Origin: an uncultured Chloroflexia bacterium
GTDB taxonomy: Bacteria > Chloroflexota > Anaerolineae > Caldilineales > Caldilineaceae
Assembly (NCBI GenBank): GCA_963821815.1
Contig: CAWGFG010000005.1
Span: forward strand, 26,956 to 90,955
Direction: 5' to 3'
DNA length: 64,000 nt
In this document: positions 22,819-58,089 of the stretch, piece by piece
Layout: every line of letters begins with the position of its first letter
Position numbering within the stretch: position 1 is the first letter of the stretch
Position numbers and translations under genes: made by a program
Notes under the pieces: model-generated
What the model was told of the DNA's origin: nothing
The model's input: the letters and a program-made list of their open reading frames with translations, nothing else
Database searches by the model: none

Positions 22819-23544
22819 ATGGCATCGGCAGAATCGGAGCGAATTGTAAAGAAGACGGACGTCGGCGACAGGAACCTTTGGGAAATGCAGCGGTGGGAAA
22901 CTGCGGTCGCGTACGATCGGTTTTCCCGCTATTTTTTGGTTCAGGATTCACCTCGATCGGTGGTGGAGGCTTACCGTCAATATCAGCGTGATAAGGGCGC
23001 AACAGAAGAGCAGGTAGGGCGCATAAAATCAACTCCTGGCTTCTGGGCACGCTGGGCCTATGCCCGTACAAGCCAGGATGAACCGATTAATGGCGCACTG
23101 ACCTGGGCTGAACGTGCAAGAGCTTTCGATACAGCCCAGCAAAGGAGCTTTATTGAGGAGCATAATACGAAGTGGAGAGAACGGCGACTCAAACTGAGTG
23201 AAAAAGAATGGGAAGCCGGTGAGGAGCTTATGGCGCGGGGTAGGCGTATGTTACAAGGTCTGCTCTTCCAAAAACGGGTCGTCGAAACTGTCGACAAGGA
23301 GACCGGCGTTCCCACTACTGAGACCATCTATGAACCCACCGATTGGGGGGAGCGGGAGCTGATTGGCATGTTCAAGATGGGCTCTGAACTCATGCGTCGC
23401 GGGGCTGGCCTCACGCCAAATAACCGAATGCCAAGTAATGACTCAGCCTTGATGATACAGGCCAAAGAAGCAGGGATTGACATTGATAAGGTAGTGCAGA
23501 CTGTACTTGAGACTGTGCTGAGCAAATTGGAACACCAGTCATAG
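22819..23544 (+). CDS. terminase small-subunit-like protein, copy A (assigned by position only)
   Basis: 241 aa, GAAGGAG upstream. Clear paralog of 44035..44829 (AYRxY...RIK..PG.W..WAY....PI.GALTWAERARA.D), which overlaps the large-terminase start. Confidence 0.5.
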   Translation: MASAESERIVKKTDVGDRNLWEMQRWETAVAYDRFSRYFLVQDSPRSVVEAYRQYQRDKGATEEQVGRIKSTPGFWARWAYARTSQDEPINGALTWAERARAFDTAQQRSFIEEHNTKWRERRLKLSEKEWEAGEELMARGRRMLQGLLFQKRVVETVDKETGVPTTETIYEPTDWGERELIGMFKMGSELMRRGAGLTPNNRMPSNDSALMIQAKEAGIDIDKVVQTVLETVLSKLEHQS

Positions 23545-24639: not shown

Positions 24640-24850
24640 TTGCGGCGCACCCACAGATGTATGAAAATAGCGTGTGCGGCATCCGCGACGCAGGTCGGAT
24701 GTTTACTGGATACTACGAGTCCGTTCGTTAGTTTGACCAGCGTGTTGCGAGGCACCCCAGACTGTTACCCCCGAAAGGGTGAGTACGTAAGGGAGAATCT
24801 TACTAGGGGCGACACGCCGTGGATGCCGGTGACGTTGGAGTTGCATCTGC
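24640..24850 (+). ncRNA. candidate IS110 bridge (guide) RNA in the non-coding left end
   Basis: An AT-rich promoter-like stretch (24587..24635) is followed by about 200 nt rich in GC hairpins (gcgccttgcggcgc, cccccgaaaggg, etc.) upstream of the recombinase ATG. Placement matches the IS110-group architecture. No covariance evidence. Confidence 0.35.
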
Positions 24851-24861
24851 GGGAGGCAAAC

Positions 24862-26114: not shown

Positions 26115-26996
26115 TCAAGGGAGTAAAATGGCGTACTGGAAGGGGAGCCCCTTGGGCGCAAAAGTCAGGGCCAGGGCATCGGCCTTGTTGGTGCTGCGTC
26201 CCAGCTGGCTGCGCAGGGTTTCCTTGTCCGATACCTTGATGCGCCCTTTGCCGTCAAAGGCGTAGAGCGGGGCCAGCAGTTCATCGCGCAGTTCCTCGTC
26301 CGGCGGCAACATGGCGCCTGAGTCATCCTTTAGCCACTCGCGCACCGCCCACCACAACTGGTCGCGCAACTGGGCAAAATCGCCCGATTCCGAACTCTCA
26401 GTAGGTCTTTCCGCCACCTTCACACCCACGATGTCGCCCCGTTTGTACGAGACCCTTTTGGCCCGCAGGCTGCGCATGATCTGGGGGGCCACGCCCGAAC
26501 CCACGCCGGTGGCGTCTACGCAGACTCGCCACCCGTTGTAGGTGATAAAGGCGTCGGCCACATAGTCGCCAGTGGTGAGTACGTCCGTATGCGACCACTG
26601 CTGGAAAGGATGCACCCAGCCGCCGTAGCGCATGCACAGCACCGACGGGTCGGAGCCGTACTCGCCCACGTCTACGCCCAGGATGCCCTGGGTGCCGTCG
26701 GGCGGCAGTTCGCCGTTTATCTGGGTGTAGAGCTTCCAGCGAGAGAAGGCCCGGTCGATCCAGTCCTGGGAGATGAGCTGGGTGGGAGAGGCGGCCGGAT
26801 AGCGAGCCAGCACCATATGCGAAAAGCGGTTATCGGTCACGCGCCGCCAACCGGCCGGCAGGGGCTGAAAGTCCTGGCCCAGACGGTTTTTGCCCACCAC
26901 GCCCACCAGATATTCCGGCATCTCAAAGCTCTGTCCGTCCTTGACCTCGCCCTCAACCAGGGGGCGCGTCCACTCGTTGATGCGGCGCACGGTCGT
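26115..26996 (-). pseudogene. terminase large subunit copy A, C-terminal (nuclease) part
   Basis: [13 protein letters not shown]...[20 protein letters not shown]...[10 protein letters not shown]...NKADALAL is collinear with copy B (46116..47004). The first 23 codons of the ORF are antisense IS21 sequence. Confidence 0.85.
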
Positions 26997-28390
26997 CTCC
27001 AGGATGTGCTGGAGCCCCTTCACTACCTGTCGCTGTTGGAGCAACGACCTGGCGCCTTTGAGCATGCGCAGCCCATGCGTCAGTGGCGTACTGCGTGGCC
27101 ACCCGCCTTTGAGAAGATGTTGGCGGCGTTACGCAGACAGCAGACAAGCGAAAGCCAAGCTGTCCGCATCTTTATCCAGATACTGCAGTTGCATCAGAGC
27201 TATTCTGCAGAAGAGGTAACGGCGGCAGTCGAACAGGCGCTGGATGAGAGACTCATCAGCCTGTCCGGCGTGCGCTTCTGTCTCAATCGGATGTTGGACC
27301 CAACTCCCGTGGTCGCTCCGCTTGACCTGTCGACGCGACCCCATCTGGCCGCCGTCGGTCACGAGGTTGCTTCCCTTGATAGGTATGATAAATTTCTGAA
27401 GGGAGCAGCAATATGAGCGCTCCTTCCACACAGCATCTAGAGCAACAACTGAGACAACTCTACCTAATGGCAATTCTGCGTCAATACCAGACGGATGCCA
27501 AGACTGCCGCTCAGGATGGCTGGACCTATGAAGCCTATTTGGCCGGACTGCTTCGACAAGAAGTGGACCGGCGTTTTCGCAACCGCCGCGAGCGCCGAAT
27601 CAAGGAGGCCCACTTCCCGCTCCGGAAGGAACTGGTCGATTTTGACTTCACTGCCATTCCCCAGCTCAACCAGCACAAGGTGATGGAACTGGCCCAGGGA
27701 GACTATCTGGACCAGGCGGAATCCGTGCTGATGGTGGGCGGCCCTGGGCTGGGCAAGACCCATCTTGCCATCGCGTTAGGGTTGGCCGCATGCAGACAGG
27801 ATCGCCGCGTGCGTTTCTACACCGTCACCCATCTGGTCAATGAGCTACAGGAGGCGCAGTCTCAGCATCAACTGCCCCGCTATCTGGACAAGAGCATACG
27901 CCATCAACTTGTCATCCTGGACGAATTCGGCAACGTACCCTTTTCACCAACCGGCGCTCAACTGCTTTTCCAGTTCTGTGCCGCCTTGCACGAGCAGACT
28001 CGCTCATCGTCACCACTAATCTTTCCTTCAGCAATGGGTTCAGGTATTCGGCGACAACGCTTGAAGAGCGGTTTACTCGACCGGCTTACTATCGCAGCAC
28101 ATTCGGAGTTCCTTGGCGATTCCTATCGTTTTCGTCACGGACTGGAAAGACACCATCATCCTGCACTGCCTACATCCCCCGTCAACAACCCGGAAAAACC
28201 GGCCTGGAAGGAGGAAGAATGGACGGACCCACACACATCGATCCAATCACCCGAATGAACTGATAGAAGGGGAGAGTGACGCGCATAATGAGATCACTTA
28301 CGCGGTTTTTGATGATCACCATTTTTGTCTATTCACGCCATTGACCGTGATGTATCCTGATGCTGAAATGACTCTGATTGGTGTTTGTCA
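26997..28390 (+). mobile_element. IS21-family remnant (istA 3' end plus frameshifted istB) replacing the middle of terminase copy A
   Basis: IstA C-terminus ([18 protein letters not shown]...), ATGA overlap with istB at 27413. The boundaries are where terminase homology stops on each side, about +/-10 bp. Confidence 0.75.
27413..28258 (+). pseudogene. istB: IS21 IstB ATPase helper, frameshifted
   Basis: Walker [12 protein letters not shown] and Walker B LVILDEFG. The segment [21 protein letters not shown] is readable only in other frames, then LLDRLT..GDSYRFR returns. Confidence 0.8.
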
Positions 28391-28764
28391 AAAACAGAGA
28401 GAACTTCAAACGCGCGTCCAACCAGGGTACAGGCTTTGACCAGTGGGCCATGCGCTAAACGGATCGCCTCGTCCCATTCCACGCACTTGCCGGTCCCGTT
28501 CCCGCTGCGGGCAATGGTCACCTGGTTGTCGCGCACCGACTCCATGACTCTGATGATGTCGGGGGTGAATCTTTCACCCAGCACCTCGACGCCAAAGCGG
28601 ACAGGGTCTTCCCGGTATTCCTTAAATCTGTCCGGCGCATAGAATGCGGTCTTTTTGTTCTTCTCAATAAGCTTCGCTAAAACCTTAAGGGTTAGGCGGT
28701 CGATCAGTTCGGGCGTAACCATCGCCACCCGATAGTCTGTAGGGCGAGAGCGATCTGTCCCCAT
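28391..28764 (-). pseudogene. terminase large subunit copy A, N-terminal part with the first ~33 aa of an intein
   Basis: ...YREDPVRFGVEVLGERFTPDIIRVMESVRDNQVTIARSGNGTGK|CVEWDEAIRLAHGPLVKACTLVGRAFEVLSV. Homology to copy B then ends at the IS21 remnant. Confidence 0.8.
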
Positions 28765-32044: not shown

Positions 32045-33794
32045 ATGTATCGAGAGAATCGCAAGCACCTGCAACCGAGTCTGATGAGTGACGTCACGAT
32101 GATGTCCAAGGCGCAACGAGAGCGTCTGGAACAGTCATGGGCCGGACCCTTTCGGGAGTACTGTTTCAAGCAGATCGACGAGAGCATCTTTGCCGTACTC
32201 TATTCGGATGTGCCGTCCAGACCCAACGTGCCGATCAATGTGCTAGTCGGACTGGAGATCCTCAAGAGCGGACTGGGCTGGAGCGACGAAGAGTTGTACG
32301 ACTCCTTTCTCTTCGACATGCAGGTGCGCTATGCGGTGGGCTACGAAAGCCTGAATGATGGGACATTTACCATTCGCTCGCTCTATCATTTTCGCCGCCG
32401 GTTGAGCCAGTATCACCAGGAGCAAGGAGTCAACCTGCTGGAAGTAGCCTTTGAAGCGATCACAGACGAGCAAGTGAAGCGGCTGAACGTGCGCACCAAG
32501 ACGCTGCGCATGGACAGTACCCAGATCGCCAGCGACATCAGAGAGAGCAGTCGTCTCCACCTGCTGGTCGAGGGAGTGAATCGACTCTATCGCATCCTGG
32601 ACGACGGGGAGAAAGCAGCCTACGCATCGCTGTGTGAAGCCTACATTCAGACAGAGACCAAGCGCTATGTCTATGGCATCAAAGGGCCGGGTGCGGTGGA
32701 TGAAGCCATCAAAGACATCGGCATAACGCTGGCTCAAATGCTGTCTGACCTGAAAGAGCGCCATGGCTCGCACCCAGTCTATCAGACGGTGCAGCGGCTC
32801 TTCGACGACAACTATCGCATTGAGGCTGATGGGGTAGAGCCGAAAGCGCAACAACGAGATCGGGTCAGGCGCTCTGCAGTCCTTGGATGACCTGGAAGCC
32901 AGCTATCGGCACAAAGCGGGCAATTCCTATCAAGGCTATGTGGCCAACATCAGCGAGAGTTGTGACGAAGAGAACGATTTGCAGTTGATCTCCAAGGTGC
33001 AGGTGGCGCCCAACAATGCCGAGGATGCGGCGCTGTTGGCAGAAGCCCTGCCGAACTTGGTGGAGCGCACAGAGCTGGACACGCTGTATACGGACGGCGG
33101 CTATGGCAGCGAGGCAGTCGACCGCTTGACAAATGAGCATCAGGTTGAGCAAATTCAGACTGGGATTCGGGGTCGCGTCCCTGATCCCAACAAGCTCACA
33201 CTGGCCGACTTCGACATCGAACAGGATGCAGATGGCAGGCCGACCGGTATCACCTGTCCGCAAGGTCAACGAGTTGAGGTGGAATCAGCGCGCAAGTCCG
33301 GCTTTGTGGCTCGCTTCGACCCTGACATCTGCACCACCTGTCCTTTACACCTGGCAGACCGTTGTCGGGCCAAGCCGCACAAACGCAATCATCGCTTCGC
33401 CCTGAGATTCACTCAGAAGCAGGTCTTTGTGGCGCAGCGCAGACGTAGGCATGCAGAGTTTCGTAGCGCGCCGGGCAATCCAAGAGCGTCAATTGAAGCC
33501 ACCATACGCTCCGTCAAGCACCCGTTTCGCCAGGGCAAGCTGCCCGTGCGAGGTCTTTTCCGCGTCACATGCATGATGATCGCATCCGCTGCCATGTGCA
33601 ACGTACGTCGTATTCAGCGCTATCTGGCCGATAATGGCCCTTGGCGACATGTTTCTTGGCCAGTTTCCGTCCATCGCACCCCATCGGGACGCCTTGACAA
33701 GCCAGTTCCGGCAGTCAACAGCCTAATCGCCTCAGGTCGACGCTTATTCTGGCGACCTCTTTGTCGCCGTCACAATACATGTTTCAGTTGTTAA
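32045..33794 (+). pseudogene. IS1182-family (DUF772 + DDE) transposase with one frame change near 32870
   Basis: FREYCF...PSRPNVPINVLVGLEILK (DUF772). After the shift: LQSLDDLEASYRHKAGNSYQGYV, YTDGGYGS, cysteine cluster, ASIEATIRSVKHPF..GKLPVRGLFRV. Confidence 0.8.
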
Positions 33795-37300: not shown

Positions 37301-37340
37301 GTGACCTGCTCCATCGCTTTAGCGGGGGAGAGCAGGTCAC
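37301..37340. repeat. Right-end-type hairpin at the left edge of unit A
   Basis: gtgacctgctcc-atcgctttagcgg-gggagagcaggtcac. The 3' 27 nt match the IS605 right end (39893..39919) almost exactly. Confidence 0.8.
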
Positions 37341-37346
37341 ATAGAG

Positions 37347-37550
37347 GTGCAGACTATGATGAGCAAGAAGGACTTCGCAGCGATAAAAACACTGAATAAG
37401 CGTGGTGTCTATCAGAAGGACATCGCAGAACAGGTGGGCGTACATCCCAGGACCGTGAGCAACTCCTACCGAAACGGCGACAAACCGCTTGCGCTTACAA
37501 AGGGGGCTCTGTTACAGGAGAAATTATTTAGACTTCTTAATACTTCTTGA
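37347..37550 (+). pseudogene. IS21 IstA N-terminal HTH stub (67 aa)
   Basis: MSKKDFAAIKTLNKRGVYQKDIAEQVGVHPRTVS is typical of IstA N-termini. The ORF stops before any DDE domain. Confidence 0.6.
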
Positions 37551-37611
37551 TAGGCAGTCAGTTCTTCATCGGACTCCCACTGCCACGTTCGCGTCAAGCC
37601 TCACTTGTGTG

Positions 37612-37842
37612 TCACCAGAGGTTTGTATATGTATCTGCTGTTCGAGGCTTTACGGCTACAATGATCACCCTGTCGCCCTTCACCTGATAGATGATACGCC
37701 AGCCATCGATCTGGATACGGCGCAAACCCGCCAATTCCCGGCCTAATGCCTTACTATCAGGTGGCCTTGGCTCCTCTTGCAGATCGAGAATGATCTCCAG
37801 CATGTCTTTGCTCAGGCGAGGGGGCACCGTACGCAAGGCCAC
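37612..37842 (-). CDS. RelE/ParE-family toxin
   Basis: ...ILDLQEEPRPPDSKALGRELAGLRRIQIDGWRIIYQVKGDRVIIVAVKPR. The conserved N-terminal residues (YQLELTDKAQ) lie upstream of the first canonical start, up to about 37872. Confidence 0.75.
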   Translation of the reverse strand: MALRTVPPRLSKDMLEIILDLQEEPRPPDSKALGRELAGLRRIQIDGWRIIYQVKGDRVIIVAVKPRTADTYTNLW

Positions 37843-37861
37843 CTGTGCCTTGTCTGTTAGC

Positions 37862-38149
37862 TCAAGTTGGTACTGAATTGCCGATCAAGGCCCGGAGGCC
37901 TGCCTCGTCGATTGGGGTGGTTGAGTTCTCGCCTCGCTCCAGTTCCAGTAGCCCCTCCAACCCGGTCACAAGATCGTCCAGGTCTTCCAGCCGTTCGGCG
38001 ATTTTGTTCCACTGCTCGGGCGAAACGATGACAGCCACAGGTTTGCCCTTGCTGGACAGCATGACCGGACTCTCTTTTGCCTTGCTGATTACGTCCAGAT
38101 GCCGATGGCGAATATCGCTAACCGTTGCCGTCTGCGGTAGTTTATTCAT
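37862..38149 (-). CDS. Phd/YefM-family antitoxin
   Basis: TVSDIRHRHLDVISKAKESPVMLSSKGKPVAVIVSPEQW. GAGGTG RBS. Its stop overlaps the start region of the toxin. Confidence 0.85.
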   Translation of the reverse strand: MNKLPQTATVSDIRHRHLDVISKAKESPVMLSSKGKPVAVIVSPEQWNKIAERLEDLDDLVTGLEGLLELERGENSTTPIDEAGLRALIGNSVPT

Positions 38150-38263
38150 GGTTGCACCTCGTATGTCATTAAAATGTCATCTAGTGATATCGTAGCAGGT
38201 AAAAGATTAGAAGTCAATCGTGTCACCGCCAATATTAAACTCCCCAGAAACGCCATCGGAGGT

Positions 38264-38340
38264 CCATAGAAAAGTGCCAGGGTACTCCCCTTTTCAAAGG
38301 GGATGGGGAATGGCACGCTCTCCTGGTTCCCCGTTAGTTC
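38264..38340 (+). repeat. tnpA-upstream (left-end-like) motif, reference copy
   Basis: ccatagaaaagtgccagggtactccccttttcaaaggggatggggaatggcacgctctcctggttcccc. Partial copies at 233, 11521, 43181, 52890 and 54564. Confidence 0.7.
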
Positions 38341-38373
38341 GATTAATTTCATCTAGTCCAGTATCTTACCAAA

Positions 38374-38766
38374 ATGACGGTGAAACGCACACGACATTCT
38401 GCCTACGAAATCAACTATCACTTCGTGTGGGTTCCGCTATACCGGCGACCGCTTCTGGTTGACGGTATTGCGTCTCAACTGGTTGAGTTGCCGCAAGAGA
38501 AGACTTGCGAACTTGAGGGCGAAATCTGGCATGTGAGCGTACAGCCTGACCACGTTCACCTGTTCTACAGCGTCCTGCCTACGTTTGCGCCCCACCAGAT
38601 CATGCACCGGCTCAAGGGGTACAGCGCCCGCATGCTGCGCAAAGAGTTTCCTCATCTGCAAAGCGAGATGCCGATCATGTGGACGCGCGCCTACTGTGTA
38701 GGGACGGCTGGCACTGTATCGGCTAAGACGATTCAGCGATACATTGAGGAGCAGGGGGGCAGGTAG
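38374..38766 (+). CDS. tnpA: IS200/IS605 Y1 (HUH) transposase
   Basis: 130 aa. YHFVWVPLYRRP, HUH as HVHL, C-terminal WTRAYCVGTAG...IQRYIEEQ with the catalytic Tyr region. Confidence 0.9.
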   Translation: MTVKRTRHSAYEINYHFVWVPLYRRPLLVDGIASQLVELPQEKTCELEGEIWHVSVQPDHVHLFYSVLPTFAPHQIMHRLKGYSARMLRKEFPHLQSEMPIMWTRAYCVGTAGTVSAKTIQRYIEEQGGR

Positions 38767-39902
38767 GTGATCCGCACGGTCAAGTACCGCTTGTCGCCGA
38801 CGAAAAAGCAGCGCTTTGTGCTGGACGCTCTCTTTTTTCAGATGCAGACCGTCTACAACGATGCGTTGAACGAACGGCGCTGGTACTGGCGCAGGAGTCG
38901 GCGCAGCATCAGCTACTGCGACCAATGGAAACGGATGCGCAATAACGGCACAAGTACCCCGACGAAAGAGGGTTGTTGGACGCCACGTCGATCCAGCAAA
39001 TGCTTCGCCGTGTGGATAAGGTGAGCCGGGCGTTTTACCAGGGGCAACGGGGAGCGCCGCGATTCAAGGGGCGCACCCGCTTCAAGAGCGTGGAGTACCG
39101 CTGCAGGGACGGTTGCAAACTGTGCGGCAACAGGCTGTACGTGCAACACGTGGGGGAGATTCCAGTCAGGCTGCATCGTCCGCTTCCGGAGGACGCCGTG
39201 AGTAAGCAGGTCATCCTCAAGCGCAGCCTGGATAAGTGGTATGTCTGCTTTCAGATCGAGCTGCCCGACCCCGAACCTATCGTCCACAGCGGTCCAGCCG
39301 TGGGTGTGGACGTCGGTTTGCACAGCCTGTTGGCGTTTTCCGACGGCACGTTGGTCGACAATCCACGCTGGCTGCGAAGCGGATTGCGCAAGCTGCGAGT
39401 CGCACAACGTCGCCTGTCCAGGCGCAAGAAGTACAGTTCGGGGTGGCGCAAGGCCGCTCGACAGGTCGCCAAGCAGCACGAGCATGTGGCCAATCAGAGG
39501 CGTGACTTCTGGCACAAGACCACAACCGAGCTCGCCCAAACGTACGGCCTGATTGCCATCGAGGAGTTGAATCTGGCGTTTATGACCCGCAACGGCCATT
39601 TGTCCCTGTCCGCACACGACGCGGCGTTGGGCATGTTCCGGCAAATGTTGAGCTACAAAGTCGAAAATACTGGTAGCCGGCTCGTTGCTGTGGACCCGCG
39701 CAACACGAGCCAAGCGTGTAGCGGTTGTGGGGTGATTGTCGCCAAAGGTCTGAACGTTCGTACCCATCATTGTCCTGACTGTGGCGTTGAGCTCGATCGG
39801 GATGTCAACGCTGCTCGGAATATTCTTGCCCGTGGACTGCGGGTTGAGGCGCTAACGTATCCGGTTGCGGACTGCGTAGCCTCAGATGCTCCCTCGCTTT
39901 AG
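38767..39902 (+). pseudogene. tnpB: TnpB (RuvC-like RNA-guided nuclease), frame change near 38940-38950
   Basis: ORFs 38767..39024 and 38973..39902. RuvC-I GVDVGL, RuvC-II IAIEELN, zinc finger CSGCG..CPDCG and RuvC-III DRDVNAARNI are all present in the second frame. Confidence 0.85.
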
Positions 39903-39919
39903 CGGGGAGAGCAGGTCAC
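39740..39919 (+). ncRNA. candidate omega (right-end) RNA scaffold of TnpB
   Basis: By analogy with characterised IS200/IS605 TnpB systems, the guide RNA spans the tnpB 3' end through the right-end hairpin (ctccc-tcgctttagcg-gggag...caggtcac). The 5' limit is a guess. Confidence 0.35.
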
Positions 39920-40384
39920 GCCTTCCCCGCTCGTTCAGGTCCGCTCGTCGCTCTCTTCGACACCTTTCTCAACGATTTTGTCTTCTGGTCGATGGTGAAG
40001 GCAGCCCCCAAGGTACTGCTGGTGGCGCTCGGCGTGCCAATGGCGGTGCAGGAGCAGCTATCGGAGGCGGAAACGGCGGAACTCCACGCGTTCCTTGAGT
40101 CCATCGTGCCGATGGGTGCACGACGTGTGGGCCAACTGCTGGAACAGCACATGTCCGAATATGACACGACGCCGATTCACACAATCGAAGCAGCGACGCT
40201 GGTACTCCACGCGCCCGATGACACACTGGTCCCGATGGAGCACACGGAGTTCACCGATCAGTATGTGCCTGACGTTACGCTAGTGCCCATGCAGGAAGGC
40301 GGTCATCTGGCCTTGCTATTCAACAGGAATGCAGCGGCGCAGGAAGAGCTTCGCGGATTCCTGGCACAGCACAATTCGCAGTAA
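39920..40384 (+). pseudogene. alpha/beta hydrolase, C-terminal fragment starting at the unit A boundary
   Basis: The frame is open from the right end. ...ATLVLHAPDDTLVPMEHTEF...VPMQEGGHLALL is the Asp/His end of the fold. No N-terminal half exists on the other side of the unit. Confidence 0.55.
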
Positions 40385-43226: not shown

Positions 43227-44034
43227 GAGTCTGATGCTCTGCCGCCTGTCTTCAGTTCTACGTTTCATCTGACATCTCGAGTACTTCCCCTGAAACGGGC
43301 GGCATGGACTGGCGAGTTTCCTCTGGAACGCTCGTCAAGTCATTCGATTCGCTTTCGTACTTAAAAACTGACGAGCGCGTTTCTGGCGCCGTCAGTCTGC
43401 TTATCGCCATTTCCCTCCAGGATACGGTGCCCACCCATCCGCCAATCAATCCCCAGGCAAACAGGCCCAAGCCCTCACTCTTGACTGGCGATGTCAAAAG
43501 GTTGACTCCTTCCATACGCAGCTTCTACTTCCGGCGCTGACAGTCGGCGAGAGACGACCCGCAGCCAGACTGCTTCCTGCTTGTCCCCAAGAAATAATGA
43601 GGCCTACGGAGCGTGGTCTGTAGTCCGCTTTTTCGTGTTTTTCCAAGGCGTTATGTCAATGTGTAACGGGCAAATCGCGCTGAAGATGAGATCTGCTATA
43701 CTTGACGGTGAAGACCAGCTCAAATGTTCTGAGGGCTCATGAGCACAGGTTCGAGCCTGACGAATCTGGGTGAGAAGTGAACGTTACTGGGCGACCGGCT
43801 ACAGACGTGTCTGGAACGACTGAGCAAGGAAGCGAAAGTTTCATCACTCCAATGGTATGAGGTGCAGTCTAGCGTTTGTCACAACGAAGTGGGTGTTCTT
43901 GTACGGTTGGATTTGGCACGTTGTTCGGAATTGGATATTCCTGTGGCTTGTCGCGACCTGCAGATTCTATCGAAGGGTCGCTCTCTGGCCATGGAAACCG
44001 GGACCCTCGCGCAGGTCGCGCAAGGAAGAAAGTC

Positions 44035-44829
44035 ATGAAGGTTAGCAAAGGTAGGAACTTATCGACAAACGGCACGAACCGATCGAGCGCTAAGCCGGTC
44101 GGGAAATCAAACGCATTAGCTGTACAGTCATCGAACGATCCGTCGAGTCCACAGCCATGGGACATGCAGCCCTGGGACACTTCGACTTCGTTCCATCGCT
44201 TCAGCCAGTTCTACCTGGCGCAACAACCCGCGCGCTCGCTAGTCGAGGCGTATAGACGGTACAGGATCGGATCAGGATCGGATCAGGATCGAGTCCAGCG
44301 CATTAAAACGGCCCCAGGCGTTTGGAACAATTGGGCGTACGGTCGTGATAGCCATGGCCAACCCATCTCCGGCGCCCTGACTTGGGCCGAGCGCGCCCGC
44401 GCCTATGATGTCGAGCAGGCGCGCCAGGCGCAAATCGAATACGAAGCGAAATGGAGGAGGCGGCAGCAGGAGCTGAGGGAGTCAGAGTGGCAAACAGGGA
44501 CTCAGCTATTGGAGCGTGGCGAACGCATGCTCAAATCCATACTCTTCGAAGAGCAGGTCGATGAAACGGTCAGCGCTGACGGCACGACCCACATCACCAA
44601 CATTACCTACGGGCCCACCAAATGGAGCGAAAGGGACATTTTGGCGACACTGCGGCTTGCGTCCGATCTGCGGAGGCGCGGGGCCGGCGAAGCGCCCACC
44701 AACCCGCGACCCGAAGTTGACTGGCGTGAGCAAGCGCGCAAGGCCGGCTTTGACCCTGACCAGCTGATGGACGATCTTTTTCAGGTACTGGCGGAGCAAT
44801 ATATGACTGGCGGTGACCAAAATGGCTGA
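44035..44829 (+). CDS. terminase small-subunit-like protein, copy B
   Basis: ATG at 44035 follows AAGGAAG. Paralog of 22819..23544. Its stop overlaps the large-terminase start (ATGGCTGA). Confidence 0.55.
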   Translation: MKVSKGRNLSTNGTNRSSAKPVGKSNALAVQSSNDPSSPQPWDMQPWDTSTSFHRFSQFYLAQQPARSLVEAYRRYRIGSGSDQDRVQRIKTAPGVWNNWAYGRDSHGQPISGALTWAERARAYDVEQARQAQIEYEAKWRRRQQELRESEWQTGTQLLERGERMLKSILFEEQVDETVSADGTTHITNITYGPTKWSERDILATLRLASDLRRRGAGEAPTNPRPEVDWREQARKAGFDPDQLMDDLFQVLAEQYMTGGDQNG

Positions 44830-47004
44830 GAATGATTTGGGCGCCATCAACCCCAACACAATCGACGCAATCTTCCGCCGGCTCTTCCAGCACATTCAGG
44901 CGCAGCAGAACGAGCGCAAGCTCTATACGCCGGACAAGTACGTTCGCTATCGTGAGGATACGGTGCGTTTCGGCGTGGAGATACTGGGCGAGACCTTCAC
45001 GCCCGATATCGTCCGCGTCATGGAGTCGGTGCGCGACAACCAGGTGACTATCGCCCGCAGCGGGAATGGAACGGGCAAGTGCCTGGAACGGGACGAGTTG
45101 ATCCATCTGGCCGATGGGTCGAGGATCGCGGCCGGCGAGCTGGTGGGGCGCAGCTTCCAGGTTCACTCGGTCGATGAGCGGCTCAACGTGCGGGTGAGCA
45201 CGGCCTACGCGACGGACAACGGCGTGGAGCCGGTCGTGCGCGTCACCACGACCACGGGACGCAGTATCGTCCGCACCCTCAACCATCCGCTGTTGTCGGC
45301 GGACTCGCACTTCGACCCTGGGCGGACGCCTCGGATTGGAAGGCCCCATTGGACTGAGGCAGGGAGCCTGCAAGTCGGCGATGTGGTCATGACCGTATCC
45401 GTTGCGCCGGCAGACGGCCATCGTTCGGTGGATGCGCACGAGATTCGCATCCTAGACCATCCGATCGGCGACGGAGCGCCAAGCGGCCATCTGCCCGTTC
45501 CCTTTGTCTGGGAACAGGTTGTGAGTGTCGAGCTGTTGCCGCCGGCGCCGACGGTGGCGATTACCGTGCCGGGAGACGAGACCTTTCTGACTGACTTCGT
45601 GGAGCACAACACACACGCCGCGGCCCGCATCGCAGTCTGGTGGTATCTCTGCTTCCACCGCGTGCAAGTCTACACCACCGCAGCGCCGCCGGCGAGCAAC
45701 CTGCGCAACCTGCTGTGGGGTGAGATCGGCACCCTGGTAGCCGCCCACCCAGAGCTTTTTCAGAGCAGCATCGTCACGGACATGATGATCAAGCGGGCGG
45801 AACAGGAGTTTATAACCGGCGTCCTGGTGCCCAGCAGCGGTCTGGCCTCCGAACGCCAGGCTCGCTTCTCCGGCAAACATGCACCCAACCTGCTCTTTAT
45901 CGTGGATGAGGGCGATGCGGTGCCTGATCCGGTCTACGACGGCATCGAGTCCTGTATGTCGGGTGGCCACACGCGGCTTCTCGTCACCTTCAACCCGCGC
46001 GATCGCACGGGTCCCATCTACCGCAAGGAGCGGGAGAACCAGGCCAATGTGGTGGAGTTGTCGGCCCTGAATCATCCCAACGTGGTGAAGGGCGAGAACT
46101 ATCTTTCCCGGCGCCGTGGACCGGGAGACGACCGTGCGCCGCATCAACGAGTGGACGCGCCCGCTACAGGAGACCGAGGTGGTGGACGGCCAGAGCTTCG
46201 AACTCCCCGACTATCTGGTCGGCGTGGTAGGCTCTGACCGCCGCGGAAACAAGTACCCGTCGCTGCCGCCGGGCTGGCGCAGGGTGACCCAGAACCAGTT
46301 TTCGCACATGGTGCTGGCCCGCTACCCGGCGGCTTCTTCCACCCAGTTGATCAGCGAGGAGTGGGTCAACAACGCCGTCTCTCGCTGGTGCACCCATGTG
46401 GCCAAGCACGGCGAGATACCGCTGCGTGGAATCAATGGCATCTTCGGCGTGGATGTGGGCGAGTACGGCTCAGACCCCTCGGTGCTCTGCATGCGCTACG
46501 GTGGCTGGGTGGCCCCCATGCAGCAGTGGTATCACACGGACGTCCTGACGACCGGCGATATGGTGGCCGACGCGTACGTGACCTACAACGGGTTCCGAGT
46601 GAACGTAGACGCCACCGGCGTGGGCGCGGGCGTTTCGCCTCAGATAAGGCGTTGTTTCCGGGCCAAGAAGATCGCCTTACCGCACGGGCGACGTGGTGGC
46701 GGTCAAGGTGGCGGAGAAAGCCACGAAGAAGCTGGAGATGGGCGAGTTCGCCCAGATGCGCGACCAGCTGTGGTGGTCGGTGCGGGAGTGGCTGCGGGAC
46801 GATCCGGGGGCCATGCTGCCGCCGGACGAGGAGTTGCGCGAGGAACTGCTGGCGCCGCTCTACTACTTTGACGACCACCGTCGCATTAAGGTCGCCAGCA
46901 AGGACACCCTGCGCGGCCAGTTGGGGCGCAGTCCCAACAAGGCCGACGCCTTGGCGTTGACCTTTGCGCCGGAAGGCAAACGCGTGTTGGTGGCCATTAT
47001 CTAG
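44822..47004 (+). pseudogene. terminase large subunit copy B, with intein and two +1 frame changes
   Basis: Walker A SGNGTGK[intein]T, Walker B LLFIVDEGD, nuclease [10 protein letters not shown] / VDATGVGAG / NKADALAL. Three frames (44813.., 46116.., 46693..) join by removing one base at about 46104 and one T at 46677-78. Confidence 0.85.
45080..45610 (+). other. 177-aa mini-intein inside the terminase P-loop
   Basis: Begins CLERDELIHLADG (block A, Cys1). Block B VRTLNHPLL (TxxH). Ends TVAITVPGDETFLTDFVEHN with a +1 Thr. Removing it restores GNGTGKT. No endonuclease-sized insert. Confidence 0.8.
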
Positions 47005-48732: not shown

Positions 48733-50539
48733 TGCCCCGGTATAGTGGCTCTCAGGCACTTTTCGTGCAAGGTTACGTTATTTAGAGAATGCTAAACTGC
48801 AGCCATTAACGTTTTTGGTGATATTCAAGGCATCAAAGAGAGGTGGCTGCAGACATGATTCCCATTTGTCTTCCTGGTTGTCAGATTGAGGCTGTTGAGA
48901 AAAATGAGACCGACCTGGTGATAAAGGCACGTACGACGAAGAAAAGTTGCCCGCTGCCCAAAACGTGAGCATGCATGCTAGCCGAATCCATAGTCGATAT
49001 AGTCGTTCGCCTCATGACCTACCGGTCAGTGAGCATACTGTACGCTTAGTGTTACATGCACGGCGTTTTCGCTGCCCTAACACTGAGTGTTCCAAGAGCA
49101 CATTTGTCGAACGCCTTGCTGGTTTGCTGCCGTACTATGGACGAAGGACGCACCGGTTGACGCGAGCGCTGCGCAGTGTCGGACGCGCACTGGGTGGTGA
49201 AGCCGGCGTGCGTCTATTGCAGCATTTGAGGATGCATTCAAGTCCGAGAACGTTGCTACGCATCGTCCGCCAACAAGTGGTGAGAGCGATAGAAACGCCT
49301 CGGGTTCTCGGCGTCGATGACTGGGCAATCAGAAAGGGCCGCACGTATGGAACGATTCTGGTCGATCTTGAGCGTCGTCAGACTGTTGATCTCCTCCCGG
49401 GCCGAGATGCTGAGACACTGACAAAATGGCTTCAAGAGCATCAAGGTATCGAAATCATAGCCCGCGATCGCTCGACAGAGTATATTCGTGCCATCAACAA
49501 CGGCGCACCATCGGCCCAACAGGTCGCGGGTGCCCTTTGGGCGCGATGGCACTTGCTTCAGAATCTGCGCCAGATGCTAGAGCGCTGCCTAAATCGTCTG
49601 CTCACTGATCGTAAGACATTGCCGTTGTTACGTATAGCGCCAAGCCTAGCCATACCAAGCAGAGCCGGTCCGTTTTTGCGCTCTCGCGCCGAGCGTAAGT
49701 CGGGTGCGGCCACCCACAGGAAATGGATGCAAATCCATCAAGAGGTGCATCGTCTGCATCGTGACGGGCACAACATTTCACAGATCTCACGCACTCTGCA
49801 GATAGATCGCAAAATCGTCCGTAAATACCTGTCAATGGCACAGCTCCCAGTACGGGCGCGACATCCTGTACGGATGAGCACATTGGACCCCTATCTAGCC
49901 CATCTGGTTACACGGTTCCACGAGGGATGTACGAATGGCATGCAACTGTGGCGAGAAATTCGTGAACAAGGATATGCTGGCGGTTATGGTCAGGTGATTC
50001 GGTGGCTCAAGAAGCATCGTCAGCAGTTAGAGACGCCAACTGCACATCCGCATGATCCATCAACTGACCGGACGGGAAACAGTGCACCTGAGGCGTCAGC
50101 ATCGCTCAAGCTTCCCTCAAACAGGCAGCTGAGTTGGCTACTCTTGCTGGATGCGGGTTCTTACCTTGGTCACGATGCAGATTTGGTGTACTCACTTCAG
50201 CAATATCCTGTGTTGAACGACTTACAGCAACTCGTACAACGCTTCAAAACAATCGTTCGAGAGCGCAAATCAACTGCACTGGACACCTGGCTCAGTGATT
50301 GCGCGACAAGTGAATTTCCTGAACTTCAGACATTCGCCACAGGTCTCATGCACGACTACTCAGCAGTTCGTGCCGCTGTGGAAACTGACTGGAGTAACTG
50401 GGCAGACTGAAGGTCACGTCAACCGACTCAAAACCTTGAAGCGGCAAATGTACGGTCGGGCAAATCTTGATCTGTTACGGATTCGCCTTCTGAACCCGAT
50501 CTAGCACGAAATATGCCGGAGAGCCACCGAACCGGGGCA
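48733..50539 (+). mobile_element. ISL3-family element with ~36-bp imperfect terminal inverted repeats; transposase frameshifted
   Basis: Left IR tgccccggtatagtggctctcaggcacttttcgtgc, versus the reverse complement of the right IR tgccccggttcggtggctctccggcatatttcgtgc. The transposase (48855..50504) is in three frames; the C-terminal SNG-QTEGHVNRLKTLKRQMYG is restored by removing one T near 50395. Confidence 0.85.
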
Positions 50540-52396: not shown

Positions 52397-52833
52397 GAGT
52401 CCTCATCGATACCAACGTCTTCCTGAGCTACATTCTTGCGCCTGCGGAGCCGCGGGTAGTCACGACCGTGATCACGATGTGCCTCACAGATGACGATATC
52501 GACCTATTGATCCCGCCTGAGCAGATCAGCGAGATAACCGCAACCGTCACCGGGAAACGGTACTTCCGTGAGCACATACCTCTCACTCTTATCGACGATC
52601 TCGTGGCCCAGCTCATGGCGTTAGGCGACATGCTGCCGCGCCTGGACGAGATCGCATCGTTCAGTCGCGACCCAAAAGACGACTATCTAGTCGCCTATGG
52701 TATCGTCAATGAAGCTGAATATCTTATCACTGGCGATCAAGATCTTCTCGTCTTGGACAGAGTCGGAGAGCTACAGGTACTCTCACCTGCGGCGTTCCTA
52801 GAAGCTACCCGCCGCCTGAAGCTTCTGCCTTAG
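52393..52833 (+). CDS. PIN-domain toxin (TIGR00305-like)
   Basis: VLIDTNVFLSYIL...SRDPKDDYLVAYGIVNEAEYLITGDQDLL. GTG start overlaps the antitoxin stop. Confidence 0.85.
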   Translation: MRVLIDTNVFLSYILAPAEPRVVTTVITMCLTDDDIDLLIPPEQISEITATVTGKRYFREHIPLTLIDDLVAQLMALGDMLPRLDEIASFSRDPKDDYLVAYGIVNEAEYLITGDQDLLVLDRVGELQVLSPAAFLEATRRLKLLP

Positions 52834-53653
52834 ATTCGCAGAATTGAGCCTGTAGAAAAAGTAAAAAGTGTGGTTTCCTGTCCACCGTTCCATAGAAGAG
52901 TGGCAGGGTATAAAGGCTACCCGAAACCGCACCATTCCCAATGGGAATCATCCGGCTTGTGTTGAACGGAACAACACTCTTCGAACCGCCATTCGACAAG
53001 ACTTTCAGCCACTGCGGAGACAGAACAAAGGGGCGGCCGGTTGTTTGGTGACTTGCACAGCCCTTGACTCTGGCGAGCAATTGCTAAGCTTCAAGTCGAT
53101 GGCCGTTCGAAATGCTAGCGTGATTGTTCCTTTCGCAAGCGGCAGACCGCAGGAGTTGTGCGGGCGTTCGATCCTGGTCCGCCCATAGAGAAAACGCTGT
53201 TGGAGAAAGGGAGTAGGAATGTCGCATATTCCCAAAACTGATGCCGGTCTTCTATGAAGGGTGAAGTGAGCTGTTGCCATCCATCACTTCAACGCAATCG
53301 CGTACCGTCTCTGGCATCGTACGGCGCGCCTTATCTTTTGACGTTGTGAATGATGACAAATAGACGCCGCAATTGCCCCGCAGGAGGAGTATCCTAGCGT
53401 TCAGGAAGTTCAAACATCCAGCCTGGCTGACAGATGATAGAACCCTCGAGTTATCGAGCGCTACAGCAAACCATTACCGAGTGTGTGACGACTGATCGGG
53501 GTCTGTTGGATGGGCTACGCTCGGAAGTCAGAACCCTGCGATCCAAGACGCGGCGCATCCGATCCCGCGTCGGGTCCACGGTTTCTTTGGTGGGTGCGGG
53601 TGACCTGCTCCATCGCTTTAGCGGGATCAGCAGGTCACATGGAGGTGCAGACT

Positions 53654-53848
53654 ATGATGAGCAAGAAGGGCTTCGCAGCGATTAAAACACTGAATAAGCG
53701 TGGTGTCTATCAGAAGGACATCGCAGAACAGGTGGGCGTACATCCCAGGACCGTGAGCAACTCCTACCGAAACGGCGACAAACCGCTTGCGCTGACAAAG
53801 GGGGCTCTGTTGCAGGAGAAACTATTTAGACATCTTAATACTTCATGA
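53654..53848 (+). pseudogene. IS21 IstA N-terminal HTH stub, copy B
   Basis: MMSKKGFAAIKTLNKRGVYQKDIAEQVGVHPRTVS. The frame is still open, as in unit A. Confidence 0.55.
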
Positions 53849-53855
53849 TAGGCAG

Positions 53856-54146
53856 TCAGTTCTTCGTCTGATACTCCCACTGCCACGTTCGCGTCAAGCT
53901 CCTGACTCTGTGTGTCACCAGAGGTTTGTATATGTATCTGCTGTTCGAGGCTTTACGGCTACAATGATCACCCTGTCGCCCTTCACCTGATAGATGATAC
54001 GCCAGCCATCGATCTGGATACGGCGCAAAACCTGCCAATTCCCGGCCTAATGCCTTACTATCAGGTGGCCTTGGCTCCACTTGCAGATCGAGAATCATCT
54101 CCAGCATGTCTTTGCTCAGGCGAGGGGGCACCGTACGCAAGGCCAC
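53856..54146 (-). pseudogene. RelE/ParE toxin, frameshifted copy
   Basis: Matches unit A through ...PPDSKALGRELAG (1-2 substitutions), then goes out of frame. The adjacent Phd copy (about 54160..54450) has no intact ORF. Confidence 0.7.
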
Positions 54147-54678
54147 CTGTGCCTTGTTTGTTAGCTCAAGTTGGTACTGAATTGCCGATCAAGGCCCGGA
54201 GGCCTGCCTCGTCGAATGGGGTGGTTGAGTTCTCGCCTCGCTCCAGTTCCAGTAGCCCTCCAACCCGGTCACAAGATCGACCAGGTCTTCTAGCCGTTCG
54301 GCGATTTTGTTCCACTGTCGGGCGAAACGATGACAGCCACAGGTTTGCCCTTGCTGGACAGCATGACCGGACTCTCTTTTGCCTTGTTGATTACATCCAG
54401 ATGCCGATGGCGAAGATCGCTAACCGTTGCCGTCTGCGGTAGTTTATCCAGGATTGCACCTCGTATGTCATTAAAATGTCATCTAGTGATATTGTAGCAG
54501 GTAAAAGATTCGAAGTCGATCGTTCACCGCCAATATTGAACTCCCAGAAACGCCATCGGAGGTCCATAGAAAAGTGCCAGGGGATTCTCCTTTTCAAAGG
54601 GGATGGGAATGGCGCGCTCTCCTGGTTTTCCGTTAGTTTTACACATTTCATCTAGTCCAGTACCATACCAGAACGACG

Positions 54679-55150
54679 GTGAAACGCACTCGACATTCTG
54701 CCTACGAAATCAACTATCACTTCGTCTGGGTTCCGCTATACCGGCGACCGGTTCTGGTTGACGCTGTAGCGTCTCGACTGGTTGAGTTGCTCCAAGAAAA
54801 GAGTCACGAACTTGAGGGTGAGATTTTGCATGTGAGCGTACAGCCTGATAGCCATCGAGGAGTTGAATCTGGCGTTTATGACCCGCAACGGCCATTTGTC
54901 CCTGTCCGCACACGATGCGGCGTTGGGCATGTCCCGGCAATTGTTGAGCTACAAAGTCGAAAATACTGGTAGCCGGCTCGTTGTTGTGGACCCGCACAAC
55001 ACGAGCCAAGCGTGTAGCGGTTGTGGGGTGATGGTCGCCAAAGGTCTGAACGTTCGTACCCATCATTGTCCGGACTGTGGCGTTGAGATCGATCGGGATG
55101 TCAACGCTGCTCGGAATTTCTCGCCCGCGGACTGCGGGTTGAGGCGCTAA
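54679..55150 (+). pseudogene. tnpA-tnpB deletion fusion
   Basis: TnpA residues 1-57 (the ATG is mutated) are joined at CCTGA (about 54844) to the TnpB C-terminus (IAIEELNLAF...CSGCG..CPDCG..DRDVNAARN). Confidence 0.8.
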
Positions 55151-55374
55151 CGTATCCGGTTACGGACTGCGTAGCCTCAGAAGCTCCTCGCTTTAGCGGG
55201 GAGAGCAGGTCACGCGTACGCAATACAGGTTCGTCTACTGCAGGACTCTGCTGATCTTCCAGATATGAAATGGTTTTGTGCTCAAGAAGCCGCAAGCAGC
55301 AAGGTTAAATCTCATGGTTCAGATTGAGCGGCAAAGCAGAGATGATTCAGAAAGGCTAGGTCGAGTCTCCCTAT

Positions 55375-57567
55375 TTGATAGCGTGTTGGCCCGGGTTCGT
55401 CACGGGGAGTTCACGTCAGAAGAAGGCTGCTAAAGAGCTGCTTGCGCGACTGAATCAAAAGGAGCGGCTCGGGATGCTTGACGGGGATCAGCGTCTATGG
55501 CCTGGCCTCGGTGCTTTCTTCCTCAGGGGATACAATCATAAACCCCTTATCGCCGGCGCAGTGGAACGGCTGGGCATCCCCGGTATCCGCTTTACCGACG
55601 GACCGCGGGGCGTGGTCATCGGTCGCTGCCACATGCTTCCCGGTCACCTCTGCCCGTGGCGCCAGCTGGGACAGTGCGCTCGAAGAAGAGATCGGGCGGG
55701 CCATCGGCATCGAGGCTCGTGCACAGGGAGCCAACCTCTTCGGTGGTATCTCTGCTGACGTGCTCCGCCACCCAAAATGGGGACGTGCACAGGAGAGCTA
55801 CGGCGAGGATCCGGTTCATGTCGGCTTGATGGGTGCAGCACTTACCACAGGAGTGCGCAAGCACGTCATGGCCTGCGTGAAACACTTTGCCCTTTACGCT
55901 ATCGAGCAGTCCCGGTTTTCTGTTGACGTCGCGGTCGACGAAGTGGCGATGCACGAAGGATTATCTGCCTCCATTTCGCACCGTAATCGAGGCTGGTGCT
56001 GACGCTGTGATGAGCGCATACAACTCCGTAAACGGCGAGTGGGCTGGACAGAACCGTAGCTTGCTCACGGATATTCTCCGCGACGAATGGGGATTCAGAG
56101 GCTTCGTCATTTCCGATTTCATCTGGGGATTCCGGGACGCCGTGAAGTCACTGCTGGCAGGACTCGATGTAGAAATGCCATTTTCGCAAATGCGCGCCCG
56201 AAAACTGCCTGCTGCGCTACGGGAGGGTAGACTATCGCCGGAGGTTGTCGACCGGGCCGCGCTTCGCGTCTTAGCCGCACAGTTGCGCCACTACGCGACT
56301 ATTGATGAACTCGTTCCATCCACAGAGGTGCTCGTATGCGAGCAGCACCGTGCGCTCGCTCGGAAGGCCGCTGCTTCGGGCATGGTGCTCCTGCGCAACG
56401 AGCCCGATGGAGATGGACAGGCGCCACTTCTTCCGCTAGGCACGGACATTGAGTCCATAGCCGTGCTCGGTACCCTCGCCGATCAAGCAAACCTCGGCGA
56501 TAGCGGCTCTTCCGCTGTCGATCCGCCGTACGGGGTCAGTCCGCTGTCCGGCGTTCGCGCAATGATGCCAAATGCTCGCGTCGAATATTACCCAGGTAGC
56601 GATGTGGCTGCCGCTGCGGAACTGGCACGCCGTGCCCATATCGCGCTTGTCGTAGTGGGCTGGGATGGCAACGGGGAGGGCGAGGCGCTCGTCGTCAACG
56701 ACCCAGACGCAGCGTCGATGATGGGGCCTACCTTTGCAAACAAGCTAGTATCCAACATCTTCATCGGGTCGCTTAGGTTGATCACCAAGGCAAAGCTGTT
56801 TCCCATGGGAGGCGACCGGGAACGTCTGACGTTGTCGAAGCATGAGGAGCATCTCATACGGTCGGTGGTTGCCGCCAATAAGCGAACGATTGTCGTCATT
56901 GTCAGCGGCAGCGTAGCCGTGATTGAATCATGGCGCGATCAGGTTCCGGCGATTGTGATGGCCTGGTATCCTGGCATGGAAGGCGGCAATGCGCTCGGCG
57001 ACATCCTTACCGGCATCGTGGAGCCGGGTGGTCGTTTGCCCGCCGCTATACCCGCTGATCCCGCACATTTACCGGATTTCGACAACACGTCGCGCCACGT
57101 GCGCTACGATCGTTGGTGGGGTCAGAGGAAGCTCGACCGGGATGGTCACTTGGCAGCGTTTCCGTTTGGCTTTGGACTGGGATATACGACGTTCGAACTG
57201 AGTGATCTCACTGTGAAGGTCCATCTGGGAACCGCAATGGGCGCCGATGTAGGCTCCCTTGCGGCGAGTGTAACTGTCCGCAATACCGGCGAACGCAGAG
57301 GTTCTACGGTCGTACAGTTGTACGCTGTGGCTGACACTGCCTCTTCAGCAGACCGTCCGCGTCGCCAATTACTCGGTTTTTCGAAGGTAGAAGTTGACGT
57401 TGGTGAAGGTTGCGTTGTTTCACTCCGAGGCACATTACTGCCACTGGCACGGCGTGATGTCACTACGCGTATGCTGGTCCCTTGTAGCAGGAAACTACCG
57501 TCTGGAGGCAGCACAGTACAGTGGCGACCCCAACGCCGCAACGACTACAATTATTCTCCACGCGTAG
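55375..57567 (+). pseudogene. glycoside hydrolase family 3 (beta-glucosidase-like), at least four frame changes
   Basis: GIPGIRFTDGPRGV, KHFALY, VMSAYNSVNGEW, FRGFVISDF, GYTTFE and the C-terminal VAGNYRLEAAQYSGDP lie in different frames. Confidence 0.85.
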
Positions 57568-58089
57568 GCGTTCGCCTGACTTGGGCGAGCGTGGCACAGC
57601 CGACTCGAGCACGTGGGCTTCGGTCTTCACGCTGTCTAGGGAATCTTCAGAACTACTGACATCAGTATTTCTAACAACGTCTCGTATTTTAAACTGCGTC
57701 TGCAGACAGACGAATATCCGTATTCTGACGCGCATTCGCTAAGCAGGATACCAAATGTGGTATGGAGAATCATTCCGCTCGGGTATCTACCGGCGACTGC
57801 AGTGTCGTCCAGACAATGCCCGTGACCGACAACAGCGCCGACAGGATGGTCGCCGGCCGCCAACGACGCAGTTCTGTCACACGGCGGCTCACACGTCGAA
57901 GCTTCCAGAAGAGTAAGACCACGATGGACAGCCTGATCCATCCATGGATCACAAAGAGCAGGCGGCCTTGCGGCCTGCCCACGGTAAAAGAGATCAAACC
58001 GGTCACAACTTCGAACAGACCAGTACCAAGAGCGCCCAGTCAACGGCGCGTGCGCTCATCCCCATGTCGTATTGTGATCTCGCTTCGCT

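Follow-up and report, generated by a model that had tools for sequence, protein, structure and literature searches.

A mini-intein splitting the Walker A motif of a stranded large terminase gene in an uncultured Chloroflexia bacterium

The intein and its terminase host

A stretch of 64,000 nucleotides (nt) from an uncultured Chloroflexia bacterium of the Caldilineaceae (GenBank assembly GCA_963821815.1, contig CAWGFG010000005.1, positions 26,956 to 90,955), referred to here as the window, contains two copies of a gene for the large subunit of a phage terminase (terL). Copy B, on the forward strand, follows a partner gene and is interrupted by a mini-intein, and copy A, on the reverse strand, is reduced to fragments. 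The mini-intein of copy B is contained in the open reading frame (ORF) 44813..46237 and occupies 45080..45610; its translation of 177 amino acids starts with CLERDELI (CLERDELIHLADG...) and ends with DFVEHN, running from Cys1 to His176-Asn177. The residues ARSGNGTGK precede it and THAAARIAV follow it, and the host protein is thus broken between the lysine and the threonine of Walker A. A preliminary description of this DNA had already placed a complete mini-intein of this length inside Walker A, with a cysteine start, a block B TxxH, and a His-Asn end followed by threonine; its coordinates, length, and motifs proved exact, and all these residues can be read from the translation. The GC content at third codon positions is 0.785 in the intein and 0.80-0.84 in the exteins, with no difference pointing to a separate origin.

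To search for homologs of the host protein, the exteins were joined and the two frame changes of copy B, described below, were repaired, resulting in a reconstruction of 553 amino acids. This search yielded more than 1600 homologs, and the best 120 are almost all 490-567 amino acids long and 51-66% identical to the query, none with a name or a Pfam domain. Intein-free homologs of 520-550 amino acids and 53-66% identity are ungapped at the insertion point, where their sequence is GTGK-T[HYF]xxA, and excision of the insert restores GNGTGKTHAAARIA. Both the earlier claim that excision rebuilds GNGTGKT and the insertion relative to intein-free homologs, on which the preliminary description had staked its case, are therefore borne out by the alignment, in which the homologs read GTGK-T uninterrupted. 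Homologous inserts are found at the identical codon in two metagenomic homologs of 702 (P0004) and 727 (P0016) amino acids, and a homologous intein occupies the same codon in two loci from Chloroflexota metagenome-assembled genomes (MAGs), L007 and L008.

The insert passes the NCBIfam model TIGR01445 (intein N-terminal splicing region, intein_Nterm) with 30.8 bits, above its curated cutoff of 24.5. A phmmer search of PDB sequences matched the DnaB mini-inteins of Npu and Ssp, with the N-terminal blocks, TxxH included, and the C-terminal blocks aligned in order, so that the profile and block comparison suggested in the preliminary description also speaks for an intein. An AlphaFold2 model built from 11 sequences reached a pLDDT of 82 and a pTM of 0.78, and only residues 109-135 are predicted to be disordered. 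The top 50 PDB matches of this model in Foldseek are all inteins or HINT domains; the best is the Ssp DnaB mini-intein (E 8e-10), and the target-normalised TM of the best matches is 0.78-0.87.

Columns that are invariant across 11 related mini-inteins include C1, R65, H69, W91, E175, H176, and N177, all of which are present in copy B, by definition, as copy B was in the alignment that defined them. Residues R65, H69, and P70 are invariant in one alignment (A2), and R65 and H69 equally so in another (A4).

That the host protein is a large terminase (TerL), as the preliminary description had proposed, is supported by fold, synteny, and annotated phage homologs. By sequence profile alone the matches are weak, with Pfam Terminase_6C at E 0.03-0.04, below the cutoff, PHROG_2, 'terminase large subunit', at 6e-6, and Sf6 gp2 at E 0.3. 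The fold was tested on a family member, the intein-free homolog P0001 (66% identical), and not on the broken window gene itself. The model of P0001 (pLDDT 89) matches Sf6 gp2 with an E-value of 1.5e-17, and further T4 gp17, the D6E TerL, and isolated TerL nuclease and ATPase domains (among them the E217 and G20c nuclease domains); its predicted layout is an N-terminal ASCE ATPase followed by a C-terminal RNase H-like nuclease. The family is present at 233 IMG/VR loci. On the viral contig L031 (64 kb) the gene order is TerS (phrog_4102), TerL, portal (phrog_2662), and major head protein (phrog_10), and on the viral contig L034 it is TerS, TerL, and head-tail adaptor. Cultured phages of Salinibacter ruber encode a full-length homolog that is 43% identical, and more distant full-length tblastn matches to proteins annotated as terminase or terminase large subunit (E 3e-22 and 1e-19) include those of Streptomyces phage Marky (E 3e-22) and Clostridium phage CDKM15. 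The host gene is a bona fide terL. The features of both copies are listed in Table 1.

Table 1. Features of the two terL copies and of the partner genes in the window
Feature	Position	Strand	Basis or remark
Upstream partner gene	43876..44829	+	Overlaps the terL start; small-terminase-like by position only
N-extein, terL copy B	44813..45079	+	89 codons with Walker A ...ARSGNGTGK at their end; collinear with N-termini of intein-free homologs up to GTGK
Class-1 mini-intein	45080..45610	+	Profile match, DnaB mini-intein alignment, HINT model, absence in homologs
Cys1 codon, block A nucleophile	45080-45082	+	Column invariant among relatives
Block B, T66-L-N-H69	45275..45286	+	Aligns to TGNH in the DnaB intein of Npu
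Vestige of LAGLIDADG motif 1, ILDHPIGDG	45449..45475	+	Directly upstream of the endonuclease-deletion junction
Blocks F and G (TVAITVPGDETFLTDFVEHN)	45551..45610	+	End in His-Asn; T, V, V, T, T, E, H, N invariant among relatives
+1 Thr, C-extein nucleophile and Walker A Thr	45611..45613	+	Translation and homolog alignment
C-extein, terL copy B (remaining ATPase domain and RNase H-like nuclease domain)	45611..47004	+	Spans two +1 frameshifts
Frameshift 1	46104..46106	+	Extra T in CTTTCCC (TT to TTT); homolog comparison
Frameshift 2	46687..46689	+	Extra G in CACGGGCGAC (GG to GGG); copy A comparison
Copy A N-extein, ending GNGTGK	28486..28728	-	tblastn against copy B, 46/81 identical
Copy A intein stub (CVEWDEAIRLAHG...SVFDK)	28384..28485	-	34 codons, 17/34 identical to copy B; truncated after
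IS21-family istB	27413..28258	+	Pfam PF01695 4.4e-47; NCBIfam IS21_help_AAA 9e-59
Copy A terL nuclease domain	26115..27003	-	Single frame, abrupt start; 71% identical to copy B
Second partner-gene paralog	22819..23544	+	42% identical to 43876..44829; third packaging-module fragment

The intein family and the lost endonuclease

An exhaustive phmmer search with the intein against 1.84 billion representative proteins yielded 391 relatives with an E-value of 1e-3 or lower, of which 136 stay within 1e-10; like the TIGR01445 score, this places the signal well outside chance. In 108 of the best 150 relatives the insert and its borders follow the layout G[KR]/C ... HN/[TS], with the slash marking the extein border; 71 of these have threonine and 37 serine as the +1 residue. 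Their median intein length is 372 amino acids, and 14 are mini-inteins of 135-182 amino acids; the nearest relatives of the window intein lie in Chloroflexota-labelled metagenomic loci. No close relative was found among 50,697 deposited phage records, the only match being in Bacillus phage SP-15 (28%). The insert is thus a member of a large, mostly metagenomic intein family that is specialised on the junction between GK and T or S in TerL-type ATPases.

This family is not strictly confined to terminases, since P0122, a primase/helicase-like protein of 1360 amino acids, carries two of its full-size members, which are 41% identical to the window intein. Within the same TerL family, P0123, P0125, and P0223 have a second intein site, ...F/SGKHAP, shortly before the Walker B stretch LLFIVDEGD; inteins occupy both sites in P0123 and P0125, and the window gene is uninterrupted at this second one.

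The endonuclease of the full-size relatives is of the LAGLIDADG type, and the allele of L007, in a Caldilineaceae MAG with a TerL of 949 amino acids, matches Pfam LAGLIDADG_3 at 6e-14. When the window intein was aligned with seven relatives of 372-400 amino acids using MAFFT, it was collinear with them through LAGLIDADG motif 1, with IRILDHPIGDGA standing opposite VRILAYLLGDGG. A gap of about 205 amino acids follows, and the alignment picks up again at LPVPFVWEQV versus LPEGYTWEKV, so that the mini-intein is homologous to endonuclease-bearing alleles on both flanks of the gap. The motif 1 relic coincides with the stretch 109-135 that is disordered in the model, and its persistence shows that an endonuclease was deleted. 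As judged from the alignment, an internal deletion of about 205 amino acids removed the endonuclease, leaving a one-helix LAGLIDADG stub. The preliminary description had noted that the insert has no room for a homing endonuclease, which agrees with its 177 amino acids against the median of the family. The inserts of P0004 and P0016 show different, cleaner endonuclease deletions.

Class-1 inteins splice by a four-step mechanism, and since all family-invariant columns are kept in copy B, the canonical pathway would be expected if it is translated. An N-S acyl shift at Cys1 would be followed by transesterification onto Thr+1; cyclisation of Asn177, helped by His176 and by Thr66 and His69 of block B, would free the intein, and an O-N shift would rebuild GNGTGKT and hence ATP binding by the packaging motor. 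Loss of the endonuclease fits the textbook homing cycle, of which the window intein would represent a late, immobile stage.

State of the terL copies and competing explanations

The reading frame of copy B shifts twice, and the reading goes on in the ORFs 46116..46871 and 46693..47004. Removal of one T at the first site gives GENYLPGAVDRETTV, matching GENLIPGAVDRETTV of the homologs; the extra T changes GENYLPGAVDRETTV to GENYLSRRRG.... Removal of one G at the second site gives ...LPHGDVVAVKVAE, where copy A reads CGG GGC GAC in a single frame. Programmed frameshifting was considered and ruled out because copy A is single-frame at the second site. With both extra bases removed, an ORF of 729 codons without an internal stop results. 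The preliminary description had set an intact intein against a host gene with two frame changes. Both frame changes were found, but the contrast is uninformative, because two random lesions in 2192 nt spare the 531-nt intein with a probability of about 0.57.

The partner gene of copy B has no match in Pfam, NCBIfam, or PHROG. Counterparts with 37-39% identity immediately precede the intein-bearing terL in L001, L002, and L007. Downstream of copy B lie a gene for an unrelated secreted protein and then an ISL3 element. Because only the partner gene accompanies terL, copy B is stranded whatever the nature of the frameshifts.

In copy A, the Cys1 codon of the intein stub is at 28485-28483 (-) with GNGTGK just before it, so the statement of the preliminary description that the two inteins start at the identical codon is correct. 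On the opposite strand, istB stands where the remaining intein and ATPase domain of copy A would be, and copy A was wrecked by an IS21-derived insertion plus an associated deletion. The roughly 410 nt at 27004..27412 were examined as a possible 3' end of istA and set aside: they have no Pfam or NCBIfam match, and only an ATGA overlap with istB hints at such an origin. The nuclease domains of A and B are 71% identical and are reciprocal best matches, whereas the other 120 family members reach at most 65.5%. No A/B homology beyond terL itself was found by tblastx of the flanks. The paralog of the partner gene at 22819..23544 is a solitary gene, separated from copy A by about 5 kb and oriented opposite to it, with no terL homology after it; an inversion that once joined it to copy A was considered and rejected, as no junction homology supports it.

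Our results indicate that the window terL copies are stranded fragments of TerS-TerL-portal-capsid modules. We consider it very probable that copy B carries a canonical class-1 mini-intein that has lost its endonuclease within a stranded terL cassette, and both terL copies are most readily interpreted as prophage-derived fossils. Copy B would be a packaging cassette of two genes, the partner gene and terL, left in a chromosomal region rich in insertion sequences (IS) and, as sequenced, broken by two 1-nt insertions in the part encoding the nuclease domain. The diverged copy A would have carried the intein at the identical codon before it was destroyed by the IS21-derived event.

Several observations weigh against this interpretation. 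The Pfam intein model PF14890 scores 17.5 bits, below its gathering threshold of 35.8, and a word-index homology search with the intein alone as query gave no matches, a null that reflects a limit of sensitivity, as the exhaustive search finds 391 relatives. The block F residue that is commonly aspartate in class-1 inteins is alanine here (TVAITV); this alanine is a family trait and not decay, because it is present family-wide, also in alleles that keep the endonuclease and lie in intact genes. Neither copy A nor copy B has a portal, capsid, or integrase gene next to it in the window, and the reading as prophage remnants therefore draws on the homologs. Finally, the fossil status of copy B hangs on two 1-nt insertions that are possible sequencing errors.

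The last point leads to the strongest alternative, in which the frame changes are assembly or sequencing errors and copy B is an intact, expressible terL with its intein in active use. Both lesions are +1 changes in short runs whose correction restores the stop-free ORF of 729 codons, a GH3 gene in the window has a comparable 1-nt insertion, a gene with PKD repeats is split, and 11 indels per 1250 nt, mostly of 1 nt, separate two repeat copies in the window. On the other hand, several ORFs of 1.2-1.5 kb are intact (IS110, ISL3, FAD oxidase, enolase-family), copy A was unquestionably destroyed by a structural rearrangement, and copy B is stranded anyway, with a secreted-protein gene and ISL3 downstream instead of portal or capsid genes. 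We take this alternative seriously, although the balance of these points inclines us somewhat against it.

A second alternative concerns the history of the two inteins, which copies A and B could have gained independently by homing from endonuclease-bearing relatives. The family is dominated by LAGLIDADG alleles at exactly this site in many TerL lineages, and its presence is patchy, with P0001, P0002, and P0003 lacking the intein and P0004 having it. However, copies A and B are closer to each other than to any other family member compared, and both bear the intein, and the divergence of their inteins (17/34) resembles that of the adjacent N-extein (46/81), as co-divergence would predict. We therefore regard independent homing as unlikely. 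That A and B inherited the intein from a shared ancestor is the parsimonious view, given that they are closest relatives and both intein-bearing, and to this extent the earlier claim that the insertion is older than the split of the two copies stands; it was worded too firmly in leaving independent homing aside.

A third alternative, to which we give similarly little credence, is that the insert descends from an intein but no longer splices, so that the terminase would stay locked in an inactive precursor. The host gene appears to be non-functional, so that selection on splicing may be relaxed, block F has the alanine instead of the usual aspartate, and residues 109-135 are predicted to form a disordered linker originating from the endonuclease deletion. 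Against this, the columns invariant in the 11 mini-inteins are kept in copy B from C1 to N177 (by definition, as stated above), the block F alanine is common to endonuclease-bearing alleles in intact genes, and natural as well as engineered mini-inteins tolerate such linkers. The remaining proposal, that the insert is not an intein but an accessory domain peculiar to this lineage, or else a bacterial intein-like (BIL) domain, in the ATPase, can point to the sub-threshold Pfam models for intein and terminase, but it is effectively refuted by the TIGR01445 match, the homolog alignment, and the Foldseek matches, since the insert breaks a catalytic motif that is invariant and runs uninterrupted in over 100 homologs, contains Cys1, TxxH, and HN followed by the Thr nucleophile, and has inteins as its structural matches (target-normalised TM 0.78-0.87 for the best).

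Surroundings, known systems, and significance

The window contains transposase genes at 20529-21341, 24640-26103, 27413-28258, 32045-33794, and 48947-50410, in this order rve integrase, IS110, IS21 istB, IS5/IS1182-like, and ISL3; the IS5/IS1182-like gene is split into DUF772 and DDE_Tnp_1_6 parts. A group II intron catalytic domain was detected at 1793-1882 (-) (Rfam RF00029, 63.9 bits), and tRNA and Rfam scans of the window revealed nothing bearing on the intein. The region is an IS graveyard in a chromosomal context of genes for sugar-acid metabolism (UxuA, aldose epimerase, SDR, enolase-family).

Other genes in the window show comparable damage. A GH3 glycosidase gene at 55478-57659 (+) is spread over three frames. 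Its frame changes, near 55615 and 55955, fall in a stretch of about 400 nt, and one or both are insertions of 1 nt; their resemblance to the terL lesions suggests that either pseudogenisation or indel errors of the assembly are common across the window. A giant surface-protein gene at 12440-17435 (-), with PKD, SdrD-B, and CarboxypepD_reg domains and a diverged repeat of 153 nt (51 codons) present in about 23 copies, is split near 15450 by a frame change into overlapping ORFs of 985 and 744 amino acids. Dispersed repeats of 94-96% identity pair 37301-38549 with 53600-54848, 39541-39921 with 54837-55215, and 1-234 with 52650-52883, and a third, more diverged repeat copy is found at 11529-11805. 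Two of the repeat copies differ by eleven indels, mostly of 1 nt, per 1250 nt.

Intein-free TerL proteins of this family are also encoded in short islands in bacterial genomes or long contigs (L003:2281-14795, L004:3531-10311, and L006:6395-16083). These islands comprise a primase-polymerase or helicase, a helix-turn-helix (HTH)/TerS-like gene, TerL, a conserved gene of about 228 amino acids (40% identical between L003 and L004), and a tyrosine integrase, and no portal or capsid gene was called in the three islands. It is conceivable, though we think it quite improbable, that the cassette of partner gene and terL derives from capsid-less, satellite-like integrative elements of about 10-12 kb with their own terminase, and that the intein homes between such elements and helper phages; the islands may instead be decayed prophages. 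If the satellite proposal were true, satellite-like hitchhikers would bring a complete terminase of their own, and the P-loop intein family would move between satellites and helpers.

As stated in the preliminary description, terminase P-loop inteins are known from phages: TerL is the most frequent intein host in mycobacteriophages, and the Walker A P-loop between Lys and Thr is the 'classic' intein site in TerL (Kelley et al. 2016, mBio, PMC5050341). The window intein shares this site in the ATPase domain, as well as the +1 threonine, with the TerL1-a inteins of mycobacteriophages and actinobacterial prophages described there, and in both cases splicing is required to recreate the ATP-binding loop. 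It differs from them in its TerL family, which has no Pfam terminase above threshold and has Salinibacter phages as its nearest cultured relatives (43%), and in that the window copy lacks an endonuclease and resides in a decayed gene; no close sequence relationship between the two groups of inteins is detectable.

Among solved structures, the cyanobacterial DnaB mini-inteins (Ssp 1mi8/6frg, Npu 4o1r) are the best sequence and structure matches, and like the window intein they are class-1 HINT mini-inteins in a P-loop NTPase. The identity is about 20%, the host there is a replicative helicase with another insertion site, and the block F aspartate is replaced by alanine here; the +1 residue is serine in the DnaB mini-inteins and threonine in the window intein. 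The full-size LAGLIDADG inteins of L007, P0124, and P0126 are much closer: they occupy the identical codon, are 47-52% identical over the splicing domain, and are collinear through motif 1, and they keep the endonuclease domain of about 205 amino acids (LAGLIDADG_3, 6e-14) that the window intein has lost.

The arrangement is thus a known one, a TerL P-loop intein, found here in another lineage of TerL; as a kind it is unremarkable, and its details are well preserved. For annotation, copy B is better described as an intein-containing terL pseudogene or remnant than as two or three hypothetical ORFs. With 177 amino acids and a +1 threonine, the intein is a possible scaffold for protein engineering, of modest practical value. 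The finding adds an exactly delimited intein at the classic site to a TerL lineage that has only unannotated relatives in cultured phages and no above-threshold match to a Pfam terminase, and it cleanly captures the final stage of the homing cycle, with the endonuclease gone, a single LAGLIDADG helix left as a stub, and full-size relatives for comparison.

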